A stretch of 64,000 nt of DNA from a virus. Its lineage: Duplodnaviria > Caudoviricetes. Under the pieces are notes generated by a model. The model did no database searches, was not told the DNA's origin, and saw nothing but the letters and a program-made list of their open reading frames with translations. How positions within the stretch are numbered: the stretch's first letter is position 1; every line of letters begins with the position of its first letter. A program made the translations under genes and the position numbers. Below are positions 8,103 through 61,134 of the stretch, in pieces. The stretch is taken from positions 1 through 64,000 of the IMG/VR virus record IMGVR_UViG_2757320919_000001, one strand, 5' to 3'.

Positions 8103-8750
8103 ATGGCTTGGAACTTAAATAATAGACAAAATGAGTATCAATTATTTGGTACTCTATCAGCAGAAATAATAGATATGTATGGGTTTCAATTAACATATAT
8201 AAAAACAACAAGATTAGGACACGATAAAGTTCTAGATGATATAATAAATTATGGGACCGAAGCAACATATCAGATATTTGCATTACCAGAAAATGCAGAA
8301 ATGTTTGATGAAAGAGGGGATATATTAAATAAATTTGGTATATTTACAATGGATTCTATGAATCTTTTTGTTAGTGCTAATACAATGAAAAGGATATTTC
8401 AAGATGAGTCTAAAATACCATCTGCTGTTGGTGATTTATTATTGCTTCCAAGTGGGAAATATATTGAAATAACAAGTATTGAACATCAAGTACCTGGTGC
8501 TAATAACCAATTTACTTATTCAAACTCAAAAAATGTTTATATGCTAAGATGTAAATCATTTAATTATAATCATGATAATATACCAACTTTAGAAGAAGTT
8601 AATAATGAAGAAGTTAATGAATCTTTAGATGAAATTTTTAATTTAGTTGGAAGTGCAGAAAACTCAAAAGATAAAATAAAAGAAGAGCAAGATAAAGAAA
8701 GTCCTTTAGTTAAAGGAACTGATAGTGTGTTTGGTTATTTAGATAGTTAA
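8103..8750 (+). CDS. 14: gp14 neck protein
   Basis: EIIDMYG...LNKFGIF...GDLL motifs; lies near gp15. Confidence 0.8.
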   Translation: MAWNLNNRQNEYQLFGTLSAEIIDMYGFQLTYIKTTRLGHDKVLDDIINYGTEATYQIFALPENAEMFDERGDILNKFGIFTMDSMNLFVSANTMKRIFQDESKIPSAVGDLLLLPSGKYIEITSIEHQVPGANNQFTYSNSKNVYMLRCKSFNYNHDNIPTLEEVNNEEVNESLDEIFNLVGSAENSKDKIKEEQDKESPLVKGTDSVFGYLDS

Positions 8751-10513
8751 TCTTTTACCCAAACACCTTGACCACAATCCCATACTCTATTATATCCATT
8801 TAATAACATGTTTTCATACTCAGTTAAGTTTGGATCAAATCTTTCTAGTTTGTCTTTTAGTTTATGCTTCATAAATTGTTGTCTTGAATATTTGTTATTA
8901 CCTTTAATGTAAAAATATCCAGGTGCTGAATAATGACTAAAAGAAAACCCTAATTGTTTGTATATTGATCCATCAGAGTAAAGTCTATCCGAGTAACTTA
9001 TTAATGACCCAGGGTTATTTTTATGAAAATGTTTTAATAATCTAGAGGCACCACCTACAATATTCAATCCCATCTTAGTGCATAATCTGATTAATTCCCA
9101 ATCATAACTATTAGTGAATCTTGGTTTACCAAAGCTCATTAGGCACATCAACTCATCTTTGTAATACAACCCATAGCAGATAGAACTACCAGTAAATCCT
9201 TGGAGATGATTACTTTCTAAAAACTCTTTCTCTTCTGCTTTAGATACTTGTTTTAGGATACATTTTCTAGCCATTATTTTGTCTGATTTTCCTAGTTTAT
9301 TGTTTATAATTGACTTCCATATTTCTTTTTTCTCTATCCAAGATGATTCAAAAATATGTAAAAGCTGAATACCTTTTTCTTTACACTTTTCTGTTTTATT
9401 TAAATGGTAGTTTTTGTCTTTACCCATTTGCTCAGAATGCCAATAGTCTCCATTACATTCTATCGCTAAATTATACCCTGGTAAATAGAAGTCTAGTTCT
9501 TTATCACCTAGAATTGAATAATCATTTTCTATATAGTTATCTAGTAAATCAGATACTTCTTTTTCAAATGAGCTAGTAGAAGGGTTGCATGTAGGACATA
9601 AAATATTTCCTCTTTTGAAATGTCCGAAACTTCTTTGAAAAATATGGCCTTCTGGGCATTCAACGGTTAAATATTTTGCTAAGTTTTCTGATGTAATTTT
9701 ATAACCTAATTCATTTATAATTAATACTTTTTCATCATCTTTGCATTTTGGACAATATGTTACATTTTTACCAAAAAAGTTGCTAAATGATCTTTGAAAA
9801 ATATGTCCTTTTGTACATTTAACTTCTAAACTATGTCCTAAAGACTCAGACTGAATTGTAAATCCCAACTTACTTAAATACATTTCTTTTTTATTTTTAT
9901 CACATTCAGGACATATAACTGTACCTTTCTCAAAGGTATAATATGTCCTTTTAAAAATATGTCCTTTTGGGCATTTAACCATTAAATTATAGGTTAAATC
10001 ATCAGAAACAGCTTTATAACCACATTTCTTCAGAAAATCTAGTTTATTCTGTTTATTACAATCTGGGCATATAACATGACCATTAGCAAATTTACTAAAT
10101 TGTCGCTTAAAAGTGTGCCCATTTGGACATTCTACTAAATTATCAGATTTATATTTAAATCCTAAATTATGAAGATGGTTTATCTTATTTTTAAGTTCAC
10201 ATTTTGGGCATGAATGTGTTCCTTTTTTAAAAACACTAAGTGCTCTTTTAAAAACATGTCCATGTTTACATTCCACTTCAAAACAATCATTTTTATCTTT
10301 TGATATTATTTTATATCCCAAATTATGTAAAAACTGCATTTTTGCTTCGTCTTTACATTTTGGACATGTAGTACAACCTTTTTCAAAAACACTAAATGCT
10401 CTTTTAAAAGTATGTCCTTTAAAACATTTAACCTCTAAATTAACTGATAGATTTTTAGATATAACTTCATATCCTAAATTATTCAAATATGTTATTTTAT
10501 CGTTATTATCCAT
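8747..10513 (-). CDS. Hef-like endonuclease copy 1: 6 zinc-finger repeats + Vsr/DUF559-like nuclease + Mom-like GNAT domain
   Basis: Six C-x3-H-x15/16-C-x2-C repeats; ELDFYLP..NLAIECNGDYWH; WELIRL...SYSD...GSIY..LGF. Confidence 0.8.
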   Translation of the reverse strand: MDNNDKITYLNNLGYEVISKNLSVNLEVKCFKGHTFKRAFSVFEKGCTTCPKCKDEAKMQFLHNLGYKIISKDKNDCFEVECKHGHVFKRALSVFKKGTHSCPKCELKNKINHLHNLGFKYKSDNLVECPNGHTFKRQFSKFANGHVICPDCNKQNKLDFLKKCGYKAVSDDLTYNLMVKCPKGHIFKRTYYTFEKGTVICPECDKNKKEMYLSKLGFTIQSESLGHSLEVKCTKGHIFQRSFSNFFGKNVTYCPKCKDDEKVLIINELGYKITSENLAKYLTVECPEGHIFQRSFGHFKRGNILCPTCNPSTSSFEKEVSDLLDNYIENDYSILGDKELDFYLPGYNLAIECNGDYWHSEQMGKDKNYHLNKTEKCKEKGIQLLHIFESSWIEKKEIWKSIINNKLGKSDKIMARKCILKQVSKAEEKEFLESNHLQGFTGSSICYGLYYKDELMCLMSFGKPRFTNSYDWELIRLCTKMGLNIVGGASRLLKHFHKNNPGSLISYSDRLYSDGSIYKQLGFSFSHYSAPGYFYIKGNNKYSRQQFMKHKLKDKLERFDPNLTEYENMLLNGYNRVWDCGQGVWVKD

Positions 10514-10541
10514 ATAATTATATCCTAAATATTTTAATACT

Positions 10542-10574
10542 ATTATAACATAAACTATATTAAATCAACCTTAA
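10542..10574 (-). promoter_or_regulatory. Early-type promoter for endonuclease copy 1
   Basis: TTAAG-GTTGAT-TTAAT-N11-TATAAT. Confidence 0.6.
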
Positions 10575-10576
10575 CT

Positions 10577-10584: not shown

Positions 10585-10621
10585 AATGGATAACATAATA
10601 ACTTATGAAGGGTGAAATTAA

Positions 10622-11653
10622 ATGGAGTTTTTCTTTTTCGAAACAACTAAGAAGTACTGTAAAGGGTTACTCGATATATTCAATAGTATACAAGTTAAAA
10701 AGAAAATAGATGAAAAAACAGATAAGTATGTCACAGTACCTATTAGTTTTGGAAGTAAAGATGCTGCTTCTGTTTTTAGTGATACAGAATTAGATCAATT
10801 ATTAAATGGTAATTTTAACATATTACCTAGAATGTCTTTAGCTTTAATGAGTATGGAAAGAGATGATCAAAGAGCTACAAGTAGATTTCAAATACCTATA
10901 AAAGATATTGACGGAAAAAATATAACTTTTCAACATAACTGTGTTCCTTATTCTTTTGATTTTGTATTAAGTATAGCTACAAGATCTTTAACTGACTTAA
11001 CTTCTATATTAGAGCAAATTTTACCTTTCTTTAACCCAAACATCAATTTAAGGGTTAGAGAGTTAGAATGGTTAACAGAACCTACAACTATACAAGTTGA
11101 ATTAATTAGTGTAGATTATGAATTACCTGATGAAAATGATGGAGCTGATATAAGAATTTGTAGTGCTAATGTTACAATGAGGCTTCACGGGAATATATAT
11201 CCCCCTATTAAAAATGGTGCTGTTATTCAACAGGTTAAACTATACTTATCACCAGTGGTAGATTTCTCTGAAGATAGTAAAGAAATAGTGCATAAGTTTA
11301 ATGTTAATGAAAATACACATATGATGGATATAGATTCATTTGTTAGAATAGATTATGGTGAAGAATGGAATAAAGTAAAACCAGTTATAGATGGTGTAAA
11401 GGGTGAAGTTAAAAACTTACCTATTCAAGAAAATATAAAATATAGGATATTATACACAGATGATACTGATGATAATATTAAGTTTATTATAAATGTATTA
11501 GAAGATAATGGTGTTAATCCTATTATATCAAAACAATTAAATTATTTTACTGTGTTTGCTAAAAATAAAGGTACCTTAAAGTTAAGTATTCAAGCAGTAA
11601 ATTCATTTGATTTACAAAGTAATATTTATGAAATGGAGTTAGAATTCTCATGA
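10622..11653 (+). CDS. 15: gp15 tail sheath terminator/completion protein
   Basis: VPISFGSK...ILPRMSL...VPYSFDF...ILEQILPFFNP motifs. Confidence 0.88.
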   Translation: MEFFFFETTKKYCKGLLDIFNSIQVKKKIDEKTDKYVTVPISFGSKDAASVFSDTELDQLLNGNFNILPRMSLALMSMERDDQRATSRFQIPIKDIDGKNITFQHNCVPYSFDFVLSIATRSLTDLTSILEQILPFFNPNINLRVRELEWLTEPTTIQVELISVDYELPDENDGADIRICSANVTMRLHGNIYPPIKNGAVIQQVKLYLSPVVDFSEDSKEIVHKFNVNENTHMMDIDSFVRIDYGEEWNKVKPVIDGVKGEVKNLPIQENIKYRILYTDDTDDNIKFIINVLEDNGVNPIISKQLNYFTVFAKNKGTLKLSIQAVNSFDLQSNIYEMELEFS

Positions 11654-32990: not shown

Positions 32991-33015
32991 ATATTTAGGG
33001 GGATACCCTAAATAT
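32991..33015. terminator. Hairpin between uvsX and endonuclease copy 2
   Basis: ATATTTAGGG-GGATA-CCCTAAATAT. Confidence 0.6.
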
Positions 33016-42308: not shown

Positions 42309-43625
42309 TCATAATCTTTCAAATAATTTATTTATATCATCCAACCAAATATCTTTAACGTGTTTTTGTGATAACTCATTAAAACTTTGTTGCAAACCAT
42401 TCAACTGTTCATTCAAACTATTTATGCTCTCTTCACTTAATGAATATAAAGGCATATTCATAAGTGTATCAATATTATCAACTATGCCTATATTATTTAT
42501 TTGTTTAATAATATCTTCTTTTTTCTTTCTTTCAAATATAACCTTTTTATCCAAAACTGCTTGAATGAATTTTATTTTGTTACTAATCAATTCAATTTGG
42601 TCTGAATATTTAGATAATTTATATTGTTTTCTCTTTTGTATATACTCTAATTTAACATCTATATATTCTTTTAAAATCTCAATCTCATCTTTATAGGTTT
42701 TAATGAAATTGTTTCTATCAGCACAAGTAAAGTTTTCAGTGTCAGTTGTTTCTATTCCTAATAATTTATGAATATTTTGATTATTCCAAAAATCTCCACT
42801 TACATTTATTACATATTCAAAATTGTCACCTAGTGAGTAGTCTTTATAATCTTTTATTATTTTTTTCTCTTTTAGTGAGTTAAAATGTATTAACATACTC
42901 TCATTAGTAGCATAAGGTGTTGTTTCTGTTATTTTTAAATTATAAGTGTCTATTTTTTCATAAACACCTTTAAATTTCCATTGTTTTTTACCATGTTCTG
43001 TATTAAGTAATTCAACAGTACCCTTATAACCTTTAAAATATGGGACCAGTGGTTTTGGTTGTTTGTTATCTAAAATATCTTTAATAGCTTGTTTAACATC
43101 TTCAGCACTTCTTTGCATTATATTTTGGGCAAAACCCACACCCATACCGTTATTGTTAATTAATAATATTAATGGTAAAGTAGGTAATAGGAACCTTGGT
43201 TCTATTTTTTGCCCCTCAAAATACTGATGATCTAAAATCTCTTCATCGTCTTTATTGAATAAAAGATCATAATAATCTGATTTTTTTATAGAAGAATATC
43301 TTGGTTGAGCTGATGTTGGTGAAGTCCTACATCCTATAGCTGATAATGGTTTAAATAATGGTAATGTAACAGGACCACAATCAAAATCTCTTGCAAAATT
43401 TGTAATTATATCAGGTAAAATATCTTCATTATGCAAATATTGTGATTTAGATGCTATTTCTGACTTTAATGTTGAAACTTTTTTATAATTAGCCAAGTCT
43501 TTACTAAAATAAACTATTTTACGACCTGAATTTTTGAACCCATCAATTAAACTTGCTATGCTTCTAATGTTATCATATGAAGCATATTGACATAAATTAT
43601 CATTAAATAATGTATTAATATTCAT
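42309..43625 (-). CDS. 52: gp52 topoisomerase II medium subunit
   Basis: RSIASLIDGFK...RK, AQPRY (catalytic Tyr), IEP..LLP.LPLIL.N...GMGVGFA. Confidence 0.93.
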   Translation of the reverse strand: MNINTLFNDNLCQYASYDNIRSIASLIDGFKNSGRKIVYFSKDLANYKKVSTLKSEIASKSQYLHNEDILPDIITNFARDFDCGPVTLPLFKPLSAIGCRTSPTSAQPRYSSIKKSDYYDLLFNKDDEEILDHQYFEGQKIEPRFLLPTLPLILLINNNGMGVGFAQNIMQRSAEDVKQAIKDILDNKQPKPLVPYFKGYKGTVELLNTEHGKKQWKFKGVYEKIDTYNLKITETTPYATNESMLIHFNSLKEKKIIKDYKDYSLGDNFEYVINVSGDFWNNQNIHKLLGIETTDTENFTCADRNNFIKTYKDEIEILKEYIDVKLEYIQKRKQYKLSKYSDQIELISNKIKFIQAVLDKKVIFERKKKEDIIKQINNIGIVDNIDTLMNMPLYSLSEESINSLNEQLNGLQQSFNELSQKHVKDIWLDDINKLFERL

Positions 43626-43659: not shown

Positions 43660-45285
43660 TTAACTTAAAATTTCCTTAACCCAAACACCTTGACCGCAGT
43701 CCCATATTCTATAGTATCCATTTTCCACCATGTTCTCATATTCTGTCTTATTTGAATCAAATATTTCTAATTTATCTTTTAACAAATGTTTCATAAATTG
43801 CTGTCTGCTATAACGAGTATTATTTTTAAAATAAAAATAACCTGGTTTAGAAAAATGGCTAAATGTGAATCCAAGCTTCAAATATATGCTTCCATCAGAA
43901 TAAAGTCTATCAGAATAACTAATAAGACTTCCTTTATTGTGTTTATGAAAATGTTTTAATAACCTAGAAGCACCACCTATAACATTTATATTTTTCTTAG
44001 TACACAATCTAATTAACTCCCAGTCATACTTATCTGTGAACCTTGGTTTGCCAAAACTCATAAGACAAACTAGTTCATTATTAAAGTATAATCCATAACA
44101 AATTGAGCTACCAGTGAAGCCTTGGAGATGATTTGTGTTTAAGAATTCTTTCTCTTCTATTTTAGGTACTTCTCTTAAAACACATTTCCTTGCAAATATT
44201 CTTTCTGATTTTCCTAGTTTGTTATTGATGATGCTAATCCAGATATCTTTCTTTTCATTCCATGATGATTCGAATATATGAATAAGCTGAATATTTTTCT
44301 CAGCACATTTTTCTGTTTTAGTTAGATGATATTTCTTATCTTTATTCATTGATTCACTATGCCAAAAATCACCATTACATTCTATTGCTAAGTTATGTTC
44401 TGGCAAGTAAATATCTAGTTCTTTTCCATTTAATATTTCCCAGTTATTAGTTCCACCTGTTAATTCCCTAACTTCTTGCTCGAATGTGCTAGAGTTTGGA
44501 TAGCAAAACGGGCATAAATGATGACCTTTTGAAAAATTACCAAATGTCCTTTTAAATACATGACCTTGCTGGCATTTTACTTCTAAATTATCCGCTAAGT
44601 TATCAGACATAATTATAAACCCTAGACTGTTTAAATAAGTATTTTTATTTTCTGCTTCACATATAGGGCAGAATTGCTGTCCATTTTTAAAGCTGTTAAA
44701 TGTTCTTTTAAATATATGTCCTTTTCGGCATTTTATTTCTAAGTCATTAGTTATATTATTAGATAGTATTTCAAAACCCAAATTGTTAATAAAATTATGT
44801 TTATTATTTATTTCACATATAGGGCAACTAATGTGGCCATTTTTAAAACTCTTATATGGACGCTTGAAAATATGATCTTTCTCACATTTTACTTCTAAGC
44901 TAGTTCCTAAATTGTTAGACATAATCTTAAAACCTAATTCTTTTAAGAAATTATGCTTTTCTTTTTTCTCACATTCAGGACAACTTAAAATACCATTTTT
45001 AAAACTACCAAATGTTCTTTTGAAAATGTGTCCTTTTTGACATTTTACTTCTAGCTTTTTTCCTAAGTTTTCAGATATAGGTTCAAAGCCTAAACTATTT
45101 AAAAAAGTTATTTTTTGTTCTATTTCACATGTAGGGCATACTGTATATCCTTTTTGAAAATCATAAAATTCTCGCTTAAATACATGCTCTTTGGAACATT
45201 TTACTATTAAATTAGTAGTTAGATTCTCAGATATTACTTGAAAGCCTAGAGTATTTAAATACTCTATTTTTTCTTGATTTGTCAT
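43660..45285 (-). CDS. Hef-like endonuclease copy 3: 5 zinc-finger repeats + nuclease + Mom-like GNAT
   Basis: Same architecture; sits between the topo II subunit genes. MTNQEK start by analogy to copy 2. Confidence 0.8.
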   Translation of the reverse strand: MTNQEKIEYLNTLGFQVISENLTTNLIVKCSKEHVFKREFYDFQKGYTVCPTCEIEQKITFLNSLGFEPISENLGKKLEVKCQKGHIFKRTFGSFKNGILSCPECEKKEKHNFLKELGFKIMSNNLGTSLEVKCEKDHIFKRPYKSFKNGHISCPICEINNKHNFINNLGFEILSNNITNDLEIKCRKGHIFKRTFNSFKNGQQFCPICEAENKNTYLNSLGFIIMSDNLADNLEVKCQQGHVFKRTFGNFSKGHHLCPFCYPNSSTFEQEVRELTGGTNNWEILNGKELDIYLPEHNLAIECNGDFWHSESMNKDKKYHLTKTEKCAEKNIQLIHIFESSWNEKKDIWISIINNKLGKSERIFARKCVLREVPKIEEKEFLNTNHLQGFTGSSICYGLYFNNELVCLMSFGKPRFTDKYDWELIRLCTKKNINVIGGASRLLKHFHKHNKGSLISYSDRLYSDGSIYLKLGFTFSHFSKPGYFYFKNNTRYSRQQFMKHLLKDKLEIFDSNKTEYENMVENGYYRIWDCGQGVWVKEILS

Positions 45286-45295
45286 ACTGAAGAAC

Positions 45296-47145
45296 CTATA
45301 AGTTTTCAATATTAAATGATTTTGTACTTAATATTTGCTTTCTAAAATCAATACCATTATCTGACATCCACTGCTCTAGAACTTTTTCATCATTATCTTT
45401 CCACTCAATTTTTTCTAAGCAGTTATCTATACCATCTTTTGCAAATACTATTCTATAATTAGCTGCAGACCAACTTCCTAACCCTTTCATGTATATAACT
45501 TCAGCATTTTTAGGTAAATTATCTTGGTCTTTTTGATATTCACCTAATGTATAGTACCATTTAATTAATTTATCATTTTGCAATACTGAAATAATAGGTG
45601 TTTTTAATCTATACACTCTACCTTCTGTTAGTAAGTTTGGCTGTAATTTATAAACTAGTGCTGTAATTAAACATGCAATATGGTTTCCATCCAAATCAGC
45701 ATCGGTAGCTATTACCATGTTTTCATATTTTGTTTCAGGTAACCCTAAGCCCATAGCTTCTACAATATCCATAACTCTTTGATTTTTTAATAATTGTGCT
45801 GTAGAACATTTTAAAGCATTTTGTAATTTACCTGTTAAAGGTAAGAAACTACTACAATCTCTACCAACTGCTTGTATTAAAGAAGAAAGTGCGCTATCTC
45901 CTTCTGCTATATACATGAATTTAGGATCTTTAGTATGTTTAGTAAATTTAGGATTAAATCTTTCTTTAGCTTCTTTTCTTTCAAAGGTATTTTGTTTTCT
46001 ATTTTCTAATTCTTGTTGAACTTTATATAATTCAATTATTGGGTCTTTAATGTGTGTATTTTTGAATAATAGTTCAGCAAAATCAGTATATTTTAGTGTA
46101 GGTATTCCTAATTCGGTTATAGTATTCTTAATTTCTTCTTTTGTTTGGCCTCCACCAAATCTTAGATTCTTTTTATTTTTAAGAATTAGAATGACACCTA
46201 TCCTGCTTTTTACAGCTGTGTTTGTAATTTTGGAGTATCCCTTTCTTAAACGATTACCAAAAGCATTTACAATATTATTTGAAATATAATCTAATGCTAC
46301 CCCACCTTTATTTAAATCAAGTGAATTTACAATATGCACAAACTTATACTCATCAGTAGGAAATATAGCAAGTTCTAAGTTTTCATCACTTTGCAATATT
46401 GAGAAACTATCAGAGTAATATTTTATAAATTCTTTAAACTCTTTTACTTTAATTAGTTTTCCCTGAAATGTAAATTCTATACCAGGATTTGAATAAGCTA
46501 TGTTTATAAGTAACGCATGTATATGATTTATTAAGTCATCATTAATCTCTTTTAATTCTAGCCTTTCAAAATCTGGTTTAAACTTAATTGTAACACCATG
46601 TGTTGATGAGGCAGGCGCTTTATCTTCTTTATGCTCTATTATAGACATATTGTTTAAACATTTTACAATACCTCTATCCCCTTCAAGAGTAATTGTTGTT
46701 AATTGATACTCAGAACTAAATAATGGTATTAATTTAGAACCTATGCCATGCGCACCTATTGTAATTCTATCTTTTTTTCTTTTTCTAAAAATGTATAATT
46801 ACTTGATGTTCTAAACTTGGTAGTTGCCATAACATAAGTATCTATTGGTAATCCTCTACCATTATCTGATATTGTTATTATACCACTATCTTTATCAATC
46901 TTCAATGATATTTTATTAGCGTATTTTCCACCAGTTCTGGTAAATTCATCGATTGAATTTTGAATAGCTTCATCTATTTGTTTTGTTAATGTTTGATTAT
47001 ACACTATTTCTTTATTAATAATTTTGTTATTTTCTAAGACTTTAACTGTATTATTGAATGATGTTAATGCACCAGTTATAAGATGAGGTAAGTTTAGATA
47101 GTACTCAACTTCATTTTCAGCATGTACAATCTTATTTTCTATCAT
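45296..47145 (-). CDS. 39: gp39+60 topoisomerase II large subunit, interrupted by a -1 frameshift at 46771-46778
   Basis: The N-piece has DEAIQNSIDE and DNGRGLP. The -1 frame supplies DRITIGAHGIGSKL and runs into the TOPRIM motifs AEGDSA and TDADLDG. About 616 aa when joined. Confidence 0.88.
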
Positions 47146-51790: not shown

Positions 51791-54446
51791 TATTATTAAA
51801 ATAGATGGCCAAATGGTTTCATTAGATGTAGATTCTTTAAAAGATGCTTCTATTGAAACTATTATTAAAATATTAAATTATACTGAAGATACATTTAAAC
51901 CTTTACTAGATTATATGTCTAACAATGGAATCCCTTATTATATGATTTTATATGGAAGATTTAATAATGAGTCTTTATATAAACAAATGGGAATAAACAT
52001 CCTAAAAACATTAGGTGCTGTTGCAATGTTATTCCCACCTGTAAGGTTAGTAGGATCAGGTTCTAGAGTTATTACTGTTGTACCAAAATTAGTATTTAGT
52101 AAAGGTGGATTGGTAAATGTTACATTAATATCTGCTGGTGCAGCTTTAAAAACAGAAGAAAATAATGAGCTATATACACTTGAAACTATGCTTAAAAATG
52201 CAATTGTGTTTATATTTGAAGATATTATAGTTAGTACTTTTAAAATGGCTAAAGATGGTATAATGAAATTAAGTTTAGGTATAGCTGAAAAAATAAAAAA
52301 AGATGGAAGTGTTTTAGTTAATGGATTACCTATATACTTATATACAGATCTTGATAACATGGATCCAACTTTATTATCAAAAAATTCAGAAACTTACGAT
52401 AAATTAAGACCTGATTTATTAATTATTTTTGAATACATCACAACTCAAGCTAAAACTAATAAATTTGTTGATAATTATTATTTTGAATCTTTAAGTTTAA
52501 TGAAGGAAAAAGATCCAAAACTATATTCAATGGTAAAAAATTCAATATTTGGAAAACAACATGTAAGACAAGGATTTATAAGGCTTGTACACAACGCAAT
52601 GTATTATTTTTCAAATTCTTATGAAGTAACATATGATGATTTTAATGATAATATAGATGATGTCCTACCATCTAATATATTAAATGATTTTAAAAAAATG
52701 ATTTTGGACAATTCTTTAGAACCATTAAAAGACAAAAAAGGGAAACAAAAAACATCACTATTTGGTGATAAATTATATAAAGTAGTATATGATAAAAGTG
52801 CTTCACAAAGTTATAATATTGGAGATGTACAAGATCTTAATAGGTTGACAAAAGCACAATTTTTTAATGTGAATAAAAAACTTCAAAATCAGACAGTTTT
52901 AAGTCAATTTGATATAGAACCACAGAAAACAGAAAAAAATACTGCAAATGTTTCAACACCATCTACTATAGTAGGAAGAGTAAATTCTGTACTACAAAAA
53001 CATGTAGGTAGGGCAAAATTAACATCAGAAGGAGTTGCTCATGTTAAAAAATATGGTATTACTACAACAAAGTCAAGCCTTACTTTAGAAGGTTTTGATC
53101 CATCTAAATATTATTTTTCATATAGTGGTAATGAACCATTTAATACTGGTATAGGAAAATTAGATTCAAACCTTTTATACAATTTAAATCTAATGGCTTA
53201 TGACTATTTTAATACATATAAAAAACAATTTACTGTAACTTCTGGTTATAGGAGTATAGAATTACAGCAAAAACTATATAATAATTTTATAAATGGTAAG
53301 GGTAGTCCTGCAAACAGACCTGGATATTCATTACATGAATATGGTATGGCAGTAGATATTAATAGTGCAGATGCAATAAAATTAGATTCTAGTGGAATGC
53401 TTTCAAAATATGATTTTTGGAGACCTATACCAAATAAGGAACCTTGGCATGTTCAACCAAAAAATATTACTGATAAAAACGGTGATGGTATGCTTGAAGC
53501 TGATATTATTGAAACTAAAAAGAAACAAGCAAATACATTACAAAAAACAAAACCTATAAATACTACTTCAATCAATACAAATGTAAAAAAACAATTATCT
53601 ACAAATACAGTAGTTTCTACTTCTGGTAAATATTATTCTATAAATATAGGTAGATCTATGTATGTTTCTAATATAAAACAAGAAAAACCTATAAAAGCAA
53701 ATACAAGAGATGTTAAACCAACCACAAATAAAGCTATAATAGATACAAAAACTATTGAATCAACTGCAAATAAAGAAGTTATAACAGATATAAAAACAAA
53801 ACCTATTAATCATTCTAATATATCAAGAAAGTATGCTCCAGAGGATACAATTGAAATTAATAAAGAAGTTATAACAGATATAAAAACAAAACCTATTAAT
53901 CATTCTAATATATCAAGAAAGTATGCTCCAGAGGATACAATTGAAATTAATAAAGAAGTAAAGAGATTGGGTGATGAGTTTGCACAAAAAAATAATAAAG
54001 GTGCATCTATTCCTGGAGATATAGGATATAAAGATGCTGGTAATGGCGTATCTATTCCTGGTGATATAGAATACGAGGAGAAAAAAATAGCAACTTCTTA
54101 TGATGTTAAAACTCAAAAAGCAAAAAATATAACTTATAAAAAAGGAAAAGATGATAATACCTATTATACATCAGATGGTAATTTTATTACCAAGAAAACA
54201 AGAATATATGATGATGGAACTAAGGAAGATTACTATTTAACAAATACCGGTCTTGAATTAACAGAAAATATGTTACAAAATGATACAGACGAACAATTTA
54301 CTGAAATGTCAGGATTATCAAAGGATCAATTTCAAAAAGGTATTAATTTAATAAATAATAAACAATCTTCTACTAATGGAGACGGTGATAAATCTTCTGT
54401 TGATGCTGTCAAATCAGTTGAAATTACAAAGAAATTAGGATTATAA
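51783..54446 (+). CDS. Large tail/tape-measure-like protein with M15 (VanY-like) peptidase domain
   Basis: VTSGYRS...Q..LY...PGYSLHEYGMAVD...EPWHV. Confidence 0.7.
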   Translation: MSDIIKIDGQMVSLDVDSLKDASIETIIKILNYTEDTFKPLLDYMSNNGIPYYMILYGRFNNESLYKQMGINILKTLGAVAMLFPPVRLVGSGSRVITVVPKLVFSKGGLVNVTLISAGAALKTEENNELYTLETMLKNAIVFIFEDIIVSTFKMAKDGIMKLSLGIAEKIKKDGSVLVNGLPIYLYTDLDNMDPTLLSKNSETYDKLRPDLLIIFEYITTQAKTNKFVDNYYFESLSLMKEKDPKLYSMVKNSIFGKQHVRQGFIRLVHNAMYYFSNSYEVTYDDFNDNIDDVLPSNILNDFKKMILDNSLEPLKDKKGKQKTSLFGDKLYKVVYDKSASQSYNIGDVQDLNRLTKAQFFNVNKKLQNQTVLSQFDIEPQKTEKNTANVSTPSTIVGRVNSVLQKHVGRAKLTSEGVAHVKKYGITTTKSSLTLEGFDPSKYYFSYSGNEPFNTGIGKLDSNLLYNLNLMAYDYFNTYKKQFTVTSGYRSIELQQKLYNNFINGKGSPANRPGYSLHEYGMAVDINSADAIKLDSSGMLSKYDFWRPIPNKEPWHVQPKNITDKNGDGMLEADIIETKKKQANTLQKTKPINTTSINTNVKKQLSTNTVVSTSGKYYSINIGRSMYVSNIKQEKPIKANTRDVKPTTNKAIIDTKTIESTANKEVITDIKTKPINHSNISRKYAPEDTIEINKEVITDIKTKPINHSNISRKYAPEDTIEINKEVKRLGDEFAQKNNKGASIPGDIGYKDAGNGVSIPGDIEYEEKKIATSYDVKTQKAKNITYKKGKDDNTYYTSDGNFITKKTRIYDDGTKEDYYLTNTGLELTENMLQNDTDEQFTEMSGLSKDQFQKGINLINNKQSSTNGDGDKSSVDAVKSVEITKKLGL
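53769..53959 (+). repeat. Perfect in-frame 90-bp tandem duplication
   Basis: NKEVITDIKTKPINHSNISRKYAPEDTIEI twice, bounded by AATAAAGAAGT at 53769, 53859 and 53949. Confidence 0.95.
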
Positions 54447-55780: not shown

Positions 55781-56542
55781 ATGGCATCTATAAGATCATT
55801 TGCGAATTTTTTTAAAAAGGGCCCTAAAAAAGTACATAATACAGAAGTACCACCACATACAATAAAACCTAACAAACCAAAACCTAATAAAATGTCTACA
55901 GTTAAAGGTAAAATTAAAAAAGGTGGTGCTATAGTTGGAATGGCAACTGGTGCAGCATTACCTTTTGGGTATAATCTACTAAAACGGAATAATATCAGGA
56001 CTGACCCTCATATTATCAATACATACAATGGAACACCAAATAGGGTATTTAATTTTGAAACTATTCTTTTACCTAATAATGCAAAACATGCAGAGGATAT
56101 TGTTAAGGCGTTATTACAGTTAAAATCAATAATGACTGGGACTCAATTGGGTACAGATAAAACTGGATTATTAATATCACAAGATTATGTTTTTACAATA
56201 GAATTTGGATCTAAAGATCCAACTAAAGGTGAACAGCTTAAAAAAGTATTAAATGAACTTTTACAGCTAAATCATGAAGAAAACGGAGAAACTGAATTAA
56301 ACCTTAAAATGTGTAATATCAATTACATGGGTCAGGCATCTGCTTTATATGGAAACGGATTACCAAGAGATTTATCTATTGCGTTACAATTTGAAGAAAA
56401 ACGACCTTTAAGAATGACATCAGATATTGTTGAAACAACTGATACATCAAATCCAAATGGGAATGAAAAAATATCAGAACCTAATATAGGACTAACAGAA
56501 GAGGAACTAAATTATAAATATTCACAAGATGAAAATAGTTAA
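55781..56542 (+). CDS. Second gp48-like paralogue, C-terminal piece
   Basis: DPH...YNG.PNRVFNF...LLP.N...NGLP..LSIALQFEE. Confidence 0.6.
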   Translation: MASIRSFANFFKKGPKKVHNTEVPPHTIKPNKPKPNKMSTVKGKIKKGGAIVGMATGAALPFGYNLLKRNNIRTDPHIINTYNGTPNRVFNFETILLPNNAKHAEDIVKALLQLKSIMTGTQLGTDKTGLLISQDYVFTIEFGSKDPTKGEQLKKVLNELLQLNHEENGETELNLKMCNINYMGQASALYGNGLPRDLSIALQFEEKRPLRMTSDIVETTDTSNPNGNEKISEPNIGLTEEELNYKYSQDENS

Positions 56543-56561
56543 TTTATAATAAGGGCAAGTT

Positions 56562-57023
56562 ATGAAAAATTCTGTTTTGAATAATAAAATAATGGTTGAT
56601 TTCAATGGATTTTCATTATCTCCTACATATTCAGTAAATATACCAAAATTAAGAGAATTTATGAAAAATAACTTATCAATGTTTTATGTTAAAGAAATGA
56701 ATGATAATGTTAGATTTGAAGTATTAGCATTAAGAGAATATAATGATTCATCTTTATGGGATATTTTAATGATTTTAAACTTTGGTGAAAATGGTATTCT
56801 TAATTTTGCTAAAGGCGATACTTGGGTAAGTGATAATGCTGAAAATCAATATAAAGAACAACAAGAATATTTTTCACCTAATTTTAAACCTGAAGATCTA
56901 TATAATCAAATACTATCAAAAATACAAAAAAAGAATGAATCAAGAAGGAAAGTTATTTTTATAAAAAGGCAGTTTATACCTCAGTTTAAAGAATCTATAA
57001 AGGATATGTTAAATGTTTTCTGA
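56562..57023 (+). CDS. 53: gp53-like baseplate wedge protein
   Basis: RFEVLA...Y.D..LWDILMILN motif. Confidence 0.7.
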   Translation: MKNSVLNNKIMVDFNGFSLSPTYSVNIPKLREFMKNNLSMFYVKEMNDNVRFEVLALREYNDSSLWDILMILNFGENGILNFAKGDTWVSDNAENQYKEQQEYFSPNFKPEDLYNQILSKIQKKNESRRKVIFIKRQFIPQFKESIKDMLNVF

Positions 57024-58149
57024 TTTTAAAATTATGCCTGAAGCATATTATGCAATATTTTTATATTCAAACAATAAAAAATCTGAATTACCACTAGACC
57101 CAGCTAATATATCAGATTTTACAATAATCTGGGATTATAATGATTTATGCGTTGAAGGTTATGTTATTTTTAATGATACCCAAAAAATAACAGAACTTTT
57201 ACCACCACATAACGGAATATGTTTTAAAGTTTCATTAAAAGATCACTTTAATATTAAATTTGAAAGAGTATTTAAGGTAACAAAAATAGACAGAGATTTT
57301 GAAGGTCAATCTGTTGCCACTATAAAGTTTGAGTTAGTTGATGAATATTATAATATGTTTGCTAATACTTTTATTTCAAAAGGGTACAATAATGTAAAGT
57401 CAACAGATGTTATTAAAGATATTTTTAGTACAAAATCTGATTTAATTTCAACACCATTAAATATTATTATAAAAGATACACCTAAAAATACCTATGAGAA
57501 TTATGTAATACAAGGTAATAAAAATCTATTATATCTTCTAAATAATATGCAAAAATTTGATGACTTACTTATTATTAATACTAGAAAAGGTATTGTTGTT
57601 ATACCTACTGATAATATAGGTAAGTTATCACCTGATCTATCAAAAGTAGTAAAGTTTTCACCAACTCAAACACAAGAATACTCACCTTATTCTGTTAAAG
57701 ACTTTACATTAATACAAGGTGATATGTTAACTCAAAATGCAATTTTACCACCGTCTATAACTTATCAAGTTGATTCAAAGAAAATTACTAAAGAAGAACA
57801 TAATACAAAAATATCACATGGTAAAAGTGGTTTAAAAACAAGTTTAACAATAAATGACAAAGATGGCATTCAAGGTATAAAAATATTCCCATACTTACAT
57901 AATATAGTTGATTCAATATATAATACTGAAATATTAGAAAGTTCTGCTATAAATATAAATGTGGCTGGTATGTTCAACCATAATTTAATGTGTAAAGTAA
58001 GTTTTGATGCAAATTCATCTATTGAAACATTAAAATCAAAAATGCCTTATGTTACTGGTGAATATTTTATAACTAAAATAGTTGATCATATATCATCTGG
58101 TAATGTTTTTACACAAACAATAACATTAGGAAGAATAGGTTCTGTATGA
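57013..58149 (+). CDS. gp27-like baseplate hub protein
   Basis: Lies between gp53 and gp5; C-terminal GEYFITKIVDHI...TQTITL.R. Confidence 0.55.
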   Translation: MFSDFKIMPEAYYAIFLYSNNKKSELPLDPANISDFTIIWDYNDLCVEGYVIFNDTQKITELLPPHNGICFKVSLKDHFNIKFERVFKVTKIDRDFEGQSVATIKFELVDEYYNMFANTFISKGYNNVKSTDVIKDIFSTKSDLISTPLNIIIKDTPKNTYENYVIQGNKNLLYLLNNMQKFDDLLIINTRKGIVVIPTDNIGKLSPDLSKVVKFSPTQTQEYSPYSVKDFTLIQGDMLTQNAILPPSITYQVDSKKITKEEHNTKISHGKSGLKTSLTINDKDGIQGIKIFPYLHNIVDSIYNTEILESSAININVAGMFNHNLMCKVSFDANSSIETLKSKMPYVTGEYFITKIVDHISSGNVFTQTITLGRIGSV

Positions 58150-58928
58150 GAGTAAATGAAAAGAATTTTAAAATATTAACACAAACTCTACCTTTTTATA
58201 AAGGTGTAATTGAAGATGATAAAGATCCTTTAGAATCTCAAAGATATAGGGTAAGAATTATTGGTATAGATGATGAAACTATACCTACTGAAACTTTACC
58301 TTGGGCTACTTCATTGGATTTTTCTTTGTTTTCTGGCATGGGCTTTACAAGTTTTATAAAAAAAGGTGCTTATGTATTAGTTCATTTATTTCAAAATGAT
58401 AGAAATCAACCTATTATAATAGGTGTTTTAAAAGGTGTTAATAATCAAAATGAAGAATTACAATCATTTAAAGATCCTACAGGTCAATATCCTTTAAATG
58501 ATTATAAAAATCAACCTGATACAAACAATAAATCAAAAGGTGAAAAATACTTAAAGAATCAAGTATTTGAAACAGAATCAGGGCATTATATGGAATTTGA
58601 TGATTCAAATGGAGATGAAAGAATACATATATTTCATAGAACTGGTACAGAAGTTCTAATTGATAAAGAAGGTACAGTAACAATAAATGTTGTAAAAGAT
58701 AGAAACTTAAATGTTAAAGAGAACCAAACTTCTGTTATAGATAAGAATGATACAACACATATAAAAGAAAATAAAAACTTAACTGTTGATAAAGATAATA
58801 CAACAAATATTAAAGGAAACAACACCATAAATATTGATAAAGACTGTAATATTACAATTAAAGGCGAATGTAATATTACAGTTACTGGAAATGCTAATAT
58901 TAAAGCATCAAATATTAATTTAAATTAA
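58146..58928 (+). CDS. 5: gp5-like baseplate spike (OB fold + beta-helix, no lysozyme domain)
   Basis: GVIEDD.DP...RYRVRI.G, LPWA, ETESGH..EFDD..G.ERI...H..G, VKD/IKGN repeats. Confidence 0.85.
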   Translation: MRVNEKNFKILTQTLPFYKGVIEDDKDPLESQRYRVRIIGIDDETIPTETLPWATSLDFSLFSGMGFTSFIKKGAYVLVHLFQNDRNQPIIIGVLKGVNNQNEELQSFKDPTGQYPLNDYKNQPDTNNKSKGEKYLKNQVFETESGHYMEFDDSNGDERIHIFHRTGTEVLIDKEGTVTINVVKDRNLNVKENQTSVIDKNDTTHIKENKNLTVDKDNTTNIKGNNTINIDKDCNITIKGECNITVTGNANIKASNINLN

Positions 58929-59256
58929 ATAATTTTTTAAAAAAACATTTAATTTTACAATGTTTGTGATTATGTGTTAGTTTCTCAACACTAATATTAA
59001 TTTCATTTTTCTTGTCATCTATTTTTTTAATAATATCATCAACATTATCATCAACAGATATTTTTACATCTGGATTTAAATGAATTTCTTTAGCTGAATT
59101 AACAATGTAGTCTTTTGCTAAAAAAATAACATTGTTATCAGATTCTATTATTATATTCTTTTTAAACTTAATGTAAATGTTTTTTTCATCTTCTTTTACA
59201 ATAATATTATCGTTTAAAACTTTTGAAAGCGGTTTATTATTATCCTCTAAAAACAT
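58915..59256 (-). CDS. Hypothetical protein
   Basis: 113 aa, overlapping the PAAR gene. Confidence 0.55.
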   Translation of the reverse strand: MFLEDNNKPLSKVLNDNIIVKEDEKNIYIKFKKNIIIESDNNVIFLAKDYIVNSAKEIHLNPDVKISVDDNVDDIIKKIDDKKNEINISVEKLTHNHKHCKIKCFFKKLFNLN

Positions 59257-59527
59257 TATTACTCCCTTGAGCGATTATACCTCCACAATTAACAGCATCT
59301 CCTATACCACAAGTAGCTTTTGAATTTGTAAAAACACTTGTGCTACCACTTGAACTATTTCTACCATGCGGTGGTGTATCAGGGCATGCGTGTGATTGTA
59401 TTTTATCACCTAGTCTATGAACAGCTATTGAATTTGCAAAAACATTAGAACTTGCTTCTATTGTAGGTGAAGGTGGATAACAACTATGTCCTAATGCTAT
59501 ATCTCCTAATCTAGTTACTGGTGGCAT
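59240..59527 (-). CDS. 5.4: gp5.4 PAAR spike-tip protein
   Basis: MPPVTRLGD...GH...VHRLGD...H...GD..CG..IAQGS.NVF.G. Confidence 0.9.
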   Translation of the reverse strand: MPPVTRLGDIALGHSCYPPSPTIEASSNVFANSIAVHRLGDKIQSHACPDTPPHGRNSSSGSTSVFTNSKATCGIGDAVNCGGIIAQGSNNVFRG

Positions 59528-61134
59528 AATATCCCTTTCCTATTCTTTATCCAAACACCTTGCCCACAATCCCATACTTTATAATACCCGTTTATACTCA
59601 TATTCTCTGATTCAGTCAAGTTTGGATCAAATTTCTCTAGTTTATCTTTAAGTTTATGTTTCATAAATTGTTGTCTAGAGTGTTTAGTCCCATTCTTATA
59701 GTAGAAATAACCTGGCTTAGAAAAATGACTAAATTCGAACCCTAATTGTTTGTAAATTGATCCATCAGAGTAAAGTCTATCTGAGTAACTTATTAATGAA
59801 CCTTCATTTTCTTTTTCGAAATGTTTCAATAATTTAGAAGCACCACCTATAACATTTGTGTTCTTCTTAGTACATAATCTAATTAACTCCCAGTCATACC
59901 TACCTGTAAATCTAGGTTTTCCGAATGACATTAAGCAAACTAATTCATCTTGGTAATAAAGTCCATAACACACAGTTGATCCAGTAAATCCTTGGAGATG
60001 ATTTGTGTCTAAAAACTCTTTCTCTTCTGTCTTAGGTACTTCTTTTAAAATGCATTTTCTAGCCATTATCTTTTTTGATTTTCCTAGCTTATTATTAATA
60101 ATACTAGTCCAAATATTTTTCTTGCTGTACCATGAATGTTCAAAAATATGGAGTAATTGTATTCCTTTTTCTAAGCATTTATTTGTTTTATCCAAATGAT
60201 AATTTTTATCTTTACCCATTTGCTCAGAATGCCAGTAGTCTCCATTACATTCTATAGCTAATTTATGGTTTGGGACATAAAAATCTAATTCTTTATCACC
60301 CAAAACTGAATAATCATTGCTTATATAATTACCTAATAATTCAGACATTTCTTTTTCAAATGAGCTAATAGAAGGGCTACATATTGGACAATATACACAT
60401 CCTTTTCTAAAGCTCTTTACTTCTCTGCTAAAAGTATGTCCATTTTTACATTCAAATAAGTTTTTTCCAATTACTTTATAACCTAATTCTTTTATAAATG
60501 ATGTTCTTTTATCTTCAACACATTCACTACATAATGGGAATTTTTTAAAATTGTTGAATATTCTCTTGGATATGTGACCATTTTTGCACATGAGTTCTAA
60601 TTCTTCTGAGTCATATTGATTTATTATGGTATAACCAAAACTAGTTATAATTTTTATCTTATCTTCTTCATTACATTTTGGGCAATTGATATATCCTTTT
60701 TTTAAATCATTATATTCTCTTTTAAAAATATGCCCGTTTTTGCATTTTATGAATAAGTCATGTGCTAAGTTTTCTGATGCTGGCTCATAACCACAACTTC
60801 TAATAAATTCAATTTTTTCTTCTTTTATACATTCATTACATGTAGTAGTTCCCTTTTTAAAGTTACCAAAATACTTTTTTATAATGTGTCCGTTTTTACA
60901 TTTAAGTAATAACTTTCCTTTTTTATCCATAGTAACAACTTCATAACCTAATCCTTTTATAAACTCTAGTTTTTGCTTTTCTTCACACTTAGGACATTTT
61001 ATATATCCTTTTTTGAAATCACCAAATTCTCTTTTAAAAATATGATTATCTTTACATTTTACATACAAGTTTCTAACTAAGTCTTCAGATACAACTTCAT
61101 AACCTAAATTATTTAAAAACTTTATTTTATCCAT
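59515..61134 (-). CDS. Hef-like endonuclease copy 4: 5 zinc-finger repeats + nuclease + Mom-like GNAT
   Basis: Same architecture; its 3' end overlaps the PAAR start. Confidence 0.8.
   Translation of the reverse strand: MDKIKFLNNLGYEVVSEDLVRNLYVKCKDNHIFKREFGDFKKGYIKCPKCEEKQKLEFIKGLGYEVVTMDKKGKLLLKCKNGHIIKKYFGNFKKGTTTCNECIKEEKIEFIRSCGYEPASENLAHDLFIKCKNGHIFKREYNDLKKGYINCPKCNEEDKIKIITSFGYTIINQYDSEELELMCKNGHISKRIFNNFKKFPLCSECVEDKRTSFIKELGYKVIGKNLFECKNGHTFSREVKSFRKGCVYCPICSPSISSFEKEMSELLGNYISNDYSVLGDKELDFYVPNHKLAIECNGDYWHSEQMGKDKNYHLDKTNKCLEKGIQLLHIFEHSWYSKKNIWTSIINNKLGKSKKIMARKCILKEVPKTEEKEFLDTNHLQGFTGSTVCYGLYYQDELVCLMSFGKPRFTGRYDWELIRLCTKKNTNVIGGASKLLKHFEKENEGSLISYSDRLYSDGSIYKQLGFEFSHFSKPGYFYYKNGTKHSRQQFMKHKLKDKLEKFDPNLTESENMSINGYYKVWDCGQGVWIKNRKGILCHQ

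Follow-up and report, generated by a model that had tools for sequence, protein, structure and literature searches.

Tandem arrays of CapR/DUF4379/DUF723-like domains, each of about 60 aa, have been described in front of an EDxHD/Vsr nuclease and, in the excerpts of the study available to us, are read as DNA-binding specificity modules (PMC12350094, NAR 2025). Excerpts of Taylor et al., 2011 (PMC3239194, NAR) place Hef-type enzymes in the Vsr-like EDxHD family and describe the specificity of I-Bth0305I as greatest around the cleavage site and little farther out, while excerpts of Iyer et al., 2021 (PMC7824862, Viruses) report Mom domains fused to nucleases of the restriction endonuclease (REase) fold in jumbo phages. 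On the evidence of these excerpts, the architecture examined here is already published; the decipherable per-module code, which the first-pass annotation had presented as apparently undescribed, was not found in the literature searched, where several sources were available in part.

The window, the whole 64,000-nt stretch of DNA analyzed, belongs to a 134,927-bp Campylobacter Fletchervirus genome whose Hef-like family comprises 12 paralogues with 59 zinc modules: hef1 to hef4 in the window and eight more paralogues outside it. We consider it probable that the four window ORFs encode homing endonucleases from the Hef-like branch of the EDxHD/Vsr-like family, as free-standing genes in which the array is the presumed targeting part. 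Relatives do carry the annotation 'Hef-like homing endonuclease', as the first-pass annotation had stated. In the proposed mechanism, the basic array would bind an extended DNA site and so set the locus recognized by each copy, the nuclease would cut gene-lacking alleles in co-infecting phages, and recombinational repair would then copy the gene into the cut allele. No cleavage, binding or homing data for the Campylobacter-phage copies were found in the literature searched.

Domain layout of the four window genes

All four ORFs and their domains lie on the minus strand, with 6, 4, 5 and 5 tandem modules as first annotated, and all 20 hexapeptides quoted from these modules are found exactly as written. 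The proposed order of an array followed by a Vsr-type PD-(D/E)xK nuclease also holds; overlooked were the approximately 180 C-terminal residues, which form a GNAT (Mom-like) domain.

The neighbors of hef1 (8747-10513; 588 aa, 6 modules) are a head-closure/neck gene (8103-8750) and a tail sheath stabilizer gene (10622-11653), and its orthologues occur in 31 phage records at 88-96% nucleotide identity. Its array (9587-10513) consists, in listed order, of modules at 10355-10513, 10199-10354, 10058-10198, 9902-10057, 9743-9901 and 9587-9742, followed by the EDxHD/Vsr-like nuclease domain (9290-9586), which begins at the PSTSSFE segment, and the C-terminal Mom-like GNAT domain (8750-9289). The protein used for folding was that of hef2 (31506-32981; 491 aa, 4 modules), a gene adjoining a UvsX-like recombinase gene (33008-34054). 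Here the array (32355-32981) has modules at 32823-32981, 32667-32822, 32511-32666 and 32355-32510, the nuclease domain (32058-32354) covers about residues 210-308, and the Mom-like GNAT domain (31509-32057) corresponds to model residues 316-491.

The genes for two DNA topoisomerase II subunits (42309-43625 and 45296-46648) flank hef3 (43660-45309; 5 modules), which encodes 549 aa if read from the TTG at 45309; the ATG at 45285, giving 541 aa and matching the orthologues, is the likelier start. Its five-module array spans 44503-45285, its nuclease domain 44206-44502 and its Mom-like GNAT domain 43663-44205. Finally, hef4 (59515-61134; 539 aa, 5 modules), with a PAAR-like gene (59240-59527) on one side and a functionally unassigned ORF (61146-61592) on the other, has its five-module array at 60379-61134, its nuclease domain at 60082-60378 and its Mom-like GNAT domain at 59518-60081. 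The neighbors of the window copies thus include conserved core genes (neck, sheath stabilizer, UvsX and topoisomerase II).

The joining of a Vsr-type PD-(D/E)xK nuclease to an N-terminal repeat array is supported. The motif ELD.Y(L/V)P...AIECNGD.WH is present in all four copies, and a nuclease profile built from 63 family members matched I-Bth0305I (3r3p) only, with an E-value of 1.1e-8. E217, D241 and H259 (hef2 numbering) are conserved in the family alignment, and the fifth EDxHD residue, an Asp in I-Bth0305I, stands opposite an invariant His270. The domain scores under the Pfam thresholds of MTES_1575 and Vsr. The segments that had been taken for linkers are borne out in sequence (PSTSSFE in hef1 and hef2, PNSSTFE in hef3, PSISSFE in hef4), but '...SSFE' is already part of the nuclease, its Glu falling opposite the first of the conserved acidic residues in I-Bth0305I.

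The GNAT domain of the hef2 AF2 model has a pLDDT of 93.5; its top Foldseek match is phage Mu Mom (8bv8, E-value 1.3e-5), and VIA aligns it to GNATs at Z 11-12.8. Matches to the PHROG 'Mom-like' family range from 6.6e-11, the best value among the window copies (hef4), to 2.5e-6. Pfam Mom is below threshold in the window copies (15.5 versus 27.1 bits), and a profile of 11 of the family's own GNAT domains found no Mom among PDB sequences. An hhalign comparison with Mom, collinear over 157 columns with an E-value of 0.077 and a probability below 1%, puts the invariant H336 and R376 (hef2) opposite Mom His58 and Arg111, with Ser390, Asp409 and Tyr418 falling 1-4 residues from Mom Ser124, Asp149 and Tyr159 (roles of the Mom residues from excerpts of PMC13219725). 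Mean column identity of the GNAT part across paralogues is 80%, and one paralogue outside the window (95777-96916) is without the domain and is kept in 7 of 7 genomes. The domain could serve in dimerization or DNA handling, or in Mom-type DNA modification.

The zinc module and its variable columns

Split at the second zinc knuckle, the modules are 47-53 aa each, typically about 52 aa, and Tandem Repeats Finder detected the corresponding 156-nt period (52 codons) in two of the four copies, hef2 (32548-32955, 74% matches) and hef3 (44542-45138, 71% matches). Each module runs through a helix, strand, loop, strand, C-x3-H knuckle, strand, short helix and C-P-x-C. Arrays have 3-7 modules in this genome's family and up to 9 in related phages, and they are strongly basic, with a net charge of +8 to +22 per array. 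To call the scaffold fixed was an overstatement: the only invariant residues among the 59 modules are three Cys, a single His reaches 90% conservation or more, and six modules have a Cys at alignment column 39 that would make the first knuckle C-x2-C rather than C-x3-H.

Profile comparison assigns the modules to the CapR/DUF4379 group. Searching with a profile of all 59 modules retrieved 3094 cluster representatives, 782 of them at E ≤ 1e-10; the 150 that were listed each have 2-13 stretches that match. Of 105 such relatives scanned against Pfam, 82 match DUF4379 and 71 CapR. The modules of this genome fall just under the Pfam DUF4379 threshold (23.1 versus 24.5 bits). Because a single-module model had no significant neighbor among solved structures (best Foldseek E-value 0.22; best VIA Z 3.3), the role of the module has no DNA-binding precedent from that source. 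Identity with C2H2 fingers or TALE repeats is ruled out, as fold and ligand order differ.

The three positions after the Arg, singled out as hypervariable, are indeed highly diverse, though not uniquely so. Per-column entropy, which had been suggested as a check, is 3.37, 3.26 and 3.09 bits at these positions over the 59 modules, but columns 7, 8, 25, 56 and 58 reach 3.16-3.56 bits. Over 88 module types the three columns have 3.42, 3.35 and 3.04 bits (ranks 4, 5 and 10 of 52), while 15 columns have at least 2.9 bits, so that twelve others are equally variable and the three make up one of four variable patches. Among orthologues, they vary in 20 of 192 group-column cells, whereas the remaining columns of high entropy vary in 125 of 768 (Fisher p = 0.04, with cells that are not independent); counted per column, variation occurs inside 7, 8 and 5 of 64 orthologous groups. 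The loop patch (columns 25, 29-31 and 33) is likewise diverse between types and stable within them (31 of 320 cells). N, D, S, T and G predominate at the three positions, where the 88 types show 77 distinct residue triplets and therefore no small RVD-like alphabet. In the wider family, the preceding Arg is not conserved (R 70, V 69, M 49 and T 48 of 350 modules).

Evolution of arrays and cassettes across phages

Typing 384 modules from seven genomes, with a bimodal identity distribution, gave the 88 module types, 86 of which each occur at a single position in a single array type. The array type fixes module content and order in every sampled phage that carries it, and its position is the same locus wherever checked, save one inversion. 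Among the 88 types in these seven genomes, no module type was seen again at a different position or in a different order. Block chimeras account for just 2 of the 17 array types: alleles of 5 and 9 modules at the hef5 locus have modules 1-4 in common, and the first module of a copy in phage F336 is also found in hef4.

The arrays evolve slowly under purifying selection. Substitution rates from 41 equal-length orthologous pairs, following up the proposed dN/dS comparison, are dN 0.021 and dS 0.126 (dN/dS 0.16). In the nuclease dS is 0.41 and in the GNAT domain 0.57, so that the cassette has 3-4.5 times the dS of the array. Of 77 cassette windows, each 120 nt long, 28 find their closest counterpart in another genome in a copy that is not the orthologue; the nuclease-GNAT cassette is mosaic among paralogues, and gene conversion is perhaps not the sole cause of its high dS.

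Presence/absence polymorphism is seen at hef6, missing in three genomes (19-nt gap), hef10, missing in two (28-nt gap), and hef7, missing in one (5-nt gap), and four of the six other genomes have additional copies with novel arrays. The window genes hef1 to hef4 are found in all six other genomes examined, with no empty site among them, a fixation that may also reflect domestication.

Alternative explanations and known systems

We consider it unlikely that the three residues following the Arg let each module read its own short DNA subsite, so that module number and order would program the target. Between types, those columns rank with the most diverse, and they vary little within orthologous groups, as expected of specificity residues, but twelve other columns are equally diverse, the loop patch shows the same pattern, and the statistical support from non-independent cells is weak. 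Alternating with conserved aromatics on the short helix beside an Arg that is nearly invariant here, although not in the wider family, the three residues are probably solvent-exposed, and the dominant N, D, S, T and G could hydrogen-bond to bases; the number of triplets nevertheless counts against a small alphabet. The two block-chimeric arrays show that an array can be reassembled from blocks of modules, yet no module type recurs elsewhere. It is also doubtful that the genes are restriction-modification-like conflict elements whose Mom-like domain modifies the phage's own adenines at array-selected sites while the nuclease cuts unmodified host or competitor DNA, as excerpts of Iyer et al., 2021 propose for jumbo-phage REase-Mom fusions (PMC7824862). 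The same cassette occurs five times in PA5oct-like Pseudomonas phages, and Mom is the closest solved fold of the GNAT domain by Foldseek. The pairing of H336 and R376 with Mom residues, however, comes from an alignment of marginal E-value whose other equivalences are partly off-register, sequence searches with Pfam Mom and the family's own profile fell short, and the paralogue without a GNAT domain is conserved all the same. We know of no case of adenine modification in these phages; their known DNA modification replaces guanine.

Very unlikely, in our judgment, is that the arrays provide only non-specific affinity, spacing or protein contacts, with specificity held by the nuclease and module differences reflecting old neutral divergence. 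I-Bth0305I, most specific around its cleavage site (excerpts of PMC3239194), offers a precedent, the variable columns are spread across the whole module, and the search for a solved DNA-binding relative of the module found none. The arrays, however, are under purifying selection. They also stay constant in module content and order across phages while paralogues exchange the cassette, a pattern opposite to the one predicted if the cassette set the target. Because twelve paralogues with nearly identical cassettes occupy twelve different sites, something other than the cassette must distinguish the copies; homologues with the same cassette carry NUMOD1/3, I-HmuI-NUMOD-like, HTH, DUF723 or DUF7487 in place of the array. 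In the hef proteins, target specificity is most likely conferred by the array. What stands of the earlier interpretation is a modular nuclease with a putative targeting array; no small RVD-like alphabet is seen.

Like C2H2 zinc-finger and TALE arrays (ZFN/TALEN), the hef proteins join tandem small modules to a nuclease, and the idea of a few exposed specificity residues per module is common to both; the hef modules differ in being 52 aa, C-x3-H ... C-x2-C and helix-strand-strand-strand-helix, without a small residue alphabet or observed module reuse. Mom of phage Mu, a stand-alone protein, modifies adenine in a tRNA-dependent manner, and the hef GNAT domain has marginal sequence similarity to it, whereas the jumbo-phage fusions combine a Mom-type GNAT with a REase-fold nuclease, as the hef proteins do. 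I-Bth0305I, the EDxHD prototype, has a homologous catalytic domain whose conserved Glu, Asp and His align with those of hef and whose last motif Asp stands opposite the family's invariant His; according to excerpts describing it, this enzyme is intron-encoded, with NUMOD/HTH-like N-terminal regions and without a GNAT domain, unlike the hef copies. Hef of the T-even phage U5 and the Hef-like endonucleases of LIMEstone (F-Lim), Acinetobacter, Vibrio and jumbo phages are free-standing beside conserved phage genes, as hef is, but many Hef-like proteins have other N-terminal regions in place of zinc arrays; of 413 matching phage records, 399 share the nuclease-GNAT cassette at 30-51% identity across 80% or more of its length. 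In the wide module-profile set, 75 of 146 proteins have just 100-140 aa after the array. As far as the excerpts of PMC12350094 describe them, phage group II intron homing endonuclease genes resemble hef in placing a Vsr-like nuclease behind at least three tandem modules, each about 52-60 aa long and interpreted in both as auxiliary domains for DNA-binding specificity. Those genes are intron-encoded, whereas the hef genes are free-standing, number 10-12 per genome when intact and broken copies are counted together, and add a GNAT domain.

The hef genes and the cassettes they share

The virus record, IMGVR_UViG_2757320919_000001, totals 134,927 bp, of which the window is the first 64 kb. By nucleotide identity the genome groups with the Campylobacter phages CP8, CPX, CP81 and CP30A, and wherever records of related phages state a genus, it is Fletchervirus. 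On the minus strand of the window we found the four open reading frames that the first-pass annotation had described as modular nucleases, with the numbers of tandem zinc modules that it had counted: hef1 (8747-10513; 588 aa, six modules), hef2 (31506-32981; 491 aa, four modules), hef3 (43660-45309; 549 aa, five modules) and hef4 (59515-61134; 539 aa, five modules). Its 20 quoted six-residue strings are all correct, as are its four linker strings. For hef3, the ATG at 45285 is the more likely start, giving 541 aa and matching the orthologues. Modules were delimited by cutting the N-terminal regions after the second zinc knuckle (unit length 47-53 aa), and Tandem Repeats Finder detected a 156-nt DNA period in two of the four genes. 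The whole genome carries 12 hef genes with 59 modules, including two head-to-tail clusters outside the window, one of three genes (83106-88165) and one of two (98345-101653).

Each window protein had been taken for a two-part protein, an array of modules joined to a nuclease, but there is a third part, a GNAT-fold domain at the C-terminus; we refer to the nuclease and GNAT domain together as the cassette. One paralogue outside the window (95777-96916) has four modules and the nuclease followed by a short, unrelated C-terminus where the others have the GNAT domain, yet is conserved in all seven genomes compared. The genes are best explained as Hef-like homing endonucleases of the EDxHD/Vsr type, encoded free-standing, in which the array would be the locus-specific, probably DNA-binding, part.

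When a profile of 63 family members was searched against the PDB, the only match was I-Bth0305I (3r3p, E 1.1e-8), with nothing else at E<=1; matches to Pfam MTES_1575 and Vsr fell below threshold. Across the 63 sequences, Asp241 (hef2 numbering throughout) is invariant and Glu217 and His259 are each at least 90% conserved, and the position of the last motif Asp of I-Bth0305I is taken by His270, likewise invariant. Judged from sequence, the catalytic domain is a homolog of I-Bth0305I and Vsr. The S-S-F-E segment, previously called a linker, belongs to the nuclease, since the alignment to 3r3p begins there. The EDxHD family was defined from I-Bth0305I by Taylor et al. 2011, who also placed Hef-type phage endonucleases in the same Vsr-like family (PMC3239194).

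The GNAT-fold domain (residues ~316-491 of hef2) has a fold closest to that of Mom, the DNA modification protein of phage Mu. Mu Mom (8bv8) was the best Foldseek match (E 1.3e-5), and PHROG matches to 'Mom-like DNA modification protein' ranged from 6.6e-11 to 2.5e-6; VIA-align gave Z 11.0 to 8bv8 and 11-12.8 to many other GNATs, and Pfam Mom was below threshold. Mu Mom is described as modifying adenine of double-stranded DNA using glycyl-tRNA, with R111 and S124 essential and H58, Y59, D149, R151 and Y159 also contributing (PMC13219725). A local hhalign run of a 63-sequence C-terminal profile against Mu Mom was collinear over 157 columns and weak (E 0.077); in it, the invariant His336 and Arg376 lie opposite H58 and R111, while Ser390, Asp409 and Tyr418 fall one to four residues off S124, D149 and Y159 (an offset of one between Mu Mom numbering and the translated Mu gene was taken from the alignment). 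This local run was the only collinear one: a shallow profile of the genome's own GNAT domains gave E 0.29, and global mode returned a meaningless alignment. An enzymatic role for the domain is thus possible on these sequence comparisons. Iyer et al. 2021 describe jumbo-phage proteins in which a Mom domain is fused to a restriction-fold nuclease and read them as modification plus restriction (PMC7824862).

The cassette is a widespread 'Hef-like' unit, matching 413 phage records (399 of them over at least 80% of its length), among them LIMEstone F-LimVII and PA5oct-like jumbo phages, the latter with five copies. Other N-terminal regions found on cassette homologs are DUF7487, DUF723, NUMOD1, NUMOD3, an I-HmuI NUMOD-like region and HTH_23; such variety typically marks a DNA-targeting part that can be exchanged, which the N-terminal regions may therefore represent.

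Mobility of the genes and proposed exchange of the cassette

The window copies have core genes as neighbors, encoding head closure/neck, tail sheath stabilizer and UvsX-like recombinase proteins, the two topoisomerase II subunits and a PAAR-like protein. In T4-like phages, free-standing homing endonuclease genes are reported usually to lie in such surroundings (PMC2988022). The topoisomerase II large subunit (45296-47145) seems to be in pieces, with a 129-aa ORF carrying ATPase-like motifs (46756-47145), a 107-nt gap and a 450-aa ORF matching only profile positions 194-644 of 661, followed by hef3 and then the gene of the other subunit, an arrangement that recalls the split topoisomerase genes of T4. 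Elsewhere in the window, at 53769-53959, a 90-nt sequence is duplicated in tandem without mismatch (2.1 copies, 100% matches).

We compared this genome with six further phage genomes. Counterparts of hef1-hef4 are present in all six, with two of them broken in F336 and hef1 displaced in F356, and four of the six carry hef copies with arrays unseen in this phage. Three other copies come and go: hef6 is absent from three genomes, hef10 from two and hef7 from one, with the flanks of the empty sites 19, 28 and 5 nt apart, respectively; these empty sites occur in CP30A-, CP81-, Los1- and F356-like genomes. Such presence/absence patterns, in which single members of the two head-to-tail clusters drop out and leave 5-28-nt empty sites, would be an indirect sign of site-specific cleavage and homing. 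In F336, the counterparts of hef3, hef4 and hef10 (record positions 70995-72446, 86735-88359 and 123138-125059) are truncated or split into two ORFs, which could reflect either real decay or sequencing error. The closest GenBank record, PV052264.1 (96% identity), breaks its hef region (56098-63869) into numerous very short ORFs and places the phage in a family to which it is not related, suggesting a frameshift-rich sequence and a taxonomy error in the record; it was left out of the comparisons because the hef gene is broken up in this way.

Arrays and cassettes differ sharply in how they have diverged. In 41 equal-length orthologous pairs (hef7 pairs, being of unequal length, were excluded, and for the truncated hef9 the GNAT bin holds its short unrelated tail), the array had dN 0.021, dS 0.126 and dN/dS 0.16, and dS rose to 0.41 in the nuclease and 0.57 in the GNAT domain. 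The DNA flanking hef genes is mostly 90-99% identical between phages, so the divergence of the array is on the scale of the genomic backbone; the cassette is far more diverged than the array between nominal orthologs. Nucleotide identity of the cassette is 0.81-0.98 to the positional ortholog and 0.70-0.91 to the best non-ortholog, several copies are no closer to their ortholog than to the best non-ortholog, and the nearest cassette copy in another genome was a non-ortholog in 28 of 77 windows of 120 nt. We take this pattern to mean that paralogs exchange the conserved cassette ectopically, with arrays that would stay tied to their locus.

The arrays themselves appear stable. The dN/dS check suggested along with the original proposal came out purifying, and diversifying selection was rejected, with values of 0.02-0.35 in 41 of 41 pairs. 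Recent shuffling of modules was rejected as well, since module pairs from different positions never exceed about 70-75% identity. Among 17 array types in the seven genomes, module content and order are constant within each type, and two types are block chimeras; the hef5 locus has 5-module and 9-module alleles with modules 1-4 in common, and an extra copy in F336 shares its first module with hef4.

On a larger scale, the array next to the neck gene in F356 is that of hef7, and the hef1 array lies beside hef8, the two flanks being about 75 kb apart. This fits an apparent ~75-kb inversion relative to this phage whose two breakpoints fall within the cassettes of hef1 (8747-10513) and hef7 (whole-genome 84881-86326), which are oppositely oriented.

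The zinc module and its variable positions

The AlphaFold2 model of hef2 had a mean pLDDT of 93.5 and that of a single module 90.4, and the two agree on the layout of the module. In these models, a long helix opens at the C-P-x-C of the preceding module and extends through the L-N-N-L-G segment, followed by a short strand, a loop and a strand closing on the first Cys. According to the AlphaFold2 secondary structure, the C-x3-H knuckle lies between two strands, the second of which ends in F-K-R; a five-residue helix (x-F-x-x-F-K) then leads to the next C-P-x-C at the start of the following helix. Three Cys are invariant and one His is at least 90% conserved in the module alignment. As modeled, the module matches the CapR/DUF4379 layout, with four putative zinc ligands, one knuckle between strands and the second pair at a helix start. 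Matches of the window proteins to Pfam DUF4379 stayed below threshold (23.1 against 24.5 bits for hef2), they matched neither the CapR model nor the classical zf-C2H2 models of Pfam, and an NCBIfam scan yielded only sub-threshold zinc-ribbon matches. A C2H2 finger was rejected because C-x3-H and C-x2-C are set in a 52-aa unit, as opposed to the C-x2-4-C-x12-H-x3-5-H beta-beta-alpha unit of ~28 aa, and a TALE repeat because that is a helical repeat of 33-35 aa. Searches for a solved relative of the module by profile against PDB sequences, by Foldseek and by a wide VIA-align search with the single-module model gave at best E 0.55, E 0.22 and Z 3.3, respectively, so homology points to no particular DNA-binding face.

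The module class is common. Its profile matched 3094 representatives of 50%-identity clusters (782 at E<=1e-10), with 2-13 matched stretches in each of the best 150; 82 of 105 scanned matched Pfam DUF4379 ('probable treble clef zinc finger') and 71 of 105 the CapR homology domain. The array was followed by 100-140 aa in 75 of 146 proteins and by 250-320 aa, as here, in 15. A 2025 NAR study of phage group II introns describes homing endonucleases in which three to five ~60-aa CapR/DUF4379/DUF723-related domains precede an EDxHD/Vsr-like nuclease; it takes these domains to be DNA-binding modules that probably confer specificity, likens them to NUMODs and regards the group as a large unrecognized outgroup (PMC12350094). 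Campylobacter phage papers, as far as their available text goes, merely list Hef-like genes (PMC3322345, PMC8540345), and no proposal of a per-module recognition code was found in the openly available text of the papers searched.

The first-pass annotation singled out three positions following a conserved Arg (columns 47, 49 and 50 of the module alignment) as a possible code. In the 59 modules of this genome these columns reach 3.37, 3.26 and 3.09 bits, and columns 7, 8, 25, 56 and 58 reach 3.16-3.56 bits. The seven genomes together gave 384 modules, which we grouped into 88 types at >=75% identity; module identity is sharply bimodal, with orthologs mostly at >=90% and all others below about 70%. 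Over the 88 types the three columns rank 4th, 5th and 10th of 52 by entropy, which places them among the most diverse columns but does not make them unique, as 15 columns reach at least 2.9 bits. The Arg itself is not conserved in the wider family (350 modules). The three positions form 77 different triplets in the 88 types, drawn mostly from T/A/S/P, S/G/N/Y and N/D/S/T, and with this many triplets and variable columns a fixed small-alphabet code of the kind carried by the TALE di-residue was rejected.

The variable columns cluster in four patches, which vary to different degrees in group-column cells: the exposed face of the long helix (columns 7-10, 12, 13, 16 and 17; 99 of 512 cells), the loop (columns 25, 29-31 and 33; 31 of 320), the short helix with the three positions (20 of 192) and the stretch before the second knuckle (columns 57-59 and 62; 46 of 256). 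Only in the loop and the short helix does high diversity between types go with little variation within orthologous groups, as might suit residues that read DNA. Set against the other high-entropy columns, the three positions gave a Fisher p of 0.04, no more than a hint given that the cells are not independent. A code of the zinc-finger or TALE kind in three residues is compatible with these data and barely supported by them. Recognition through several contributing patches, non-additive recognition and mainly non-specific binding are possible rivals to the three-residue code, the last set against arrays that hold to their loci under purifying selection. We advance the module code purely as a hypothesis.

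As far as the evidence goes, the genes are ordinary Hef-like homing endonucleases of a kind already annotated in relatives, and their architecture has been published in two halves. What is new here is the combination of array, nuclease and Mom-like domain, its dozen copies per genome and the evolutionary split between array and cassette. The family illustrates how selfish nucleases may evolve with targeting arrays fixed in place and a catalytic cassette swapped among copies, the shared cassettes apparently also acting as substrates for large genome rearrangements. With 59 versions of one zinc module in the 12 arrays of one 135-kb genome, and thousands more arrays in public data, it is a natural data set for testing modular DNA reading by this module class, and would interest genome engineers if the reading is modular. 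One further reading, which we think improbable, is that type-specific residues of the short helix and preceding loop read successive subsites and that the array delivers both the nuclease and the Mom-type modifier, so that each element would mark and protect its own site and cut unmarked alleles. The arrays would in that case join C2H2 fingers and TALEs as a third DNA-recognition system of natural origin, modular at least in part.
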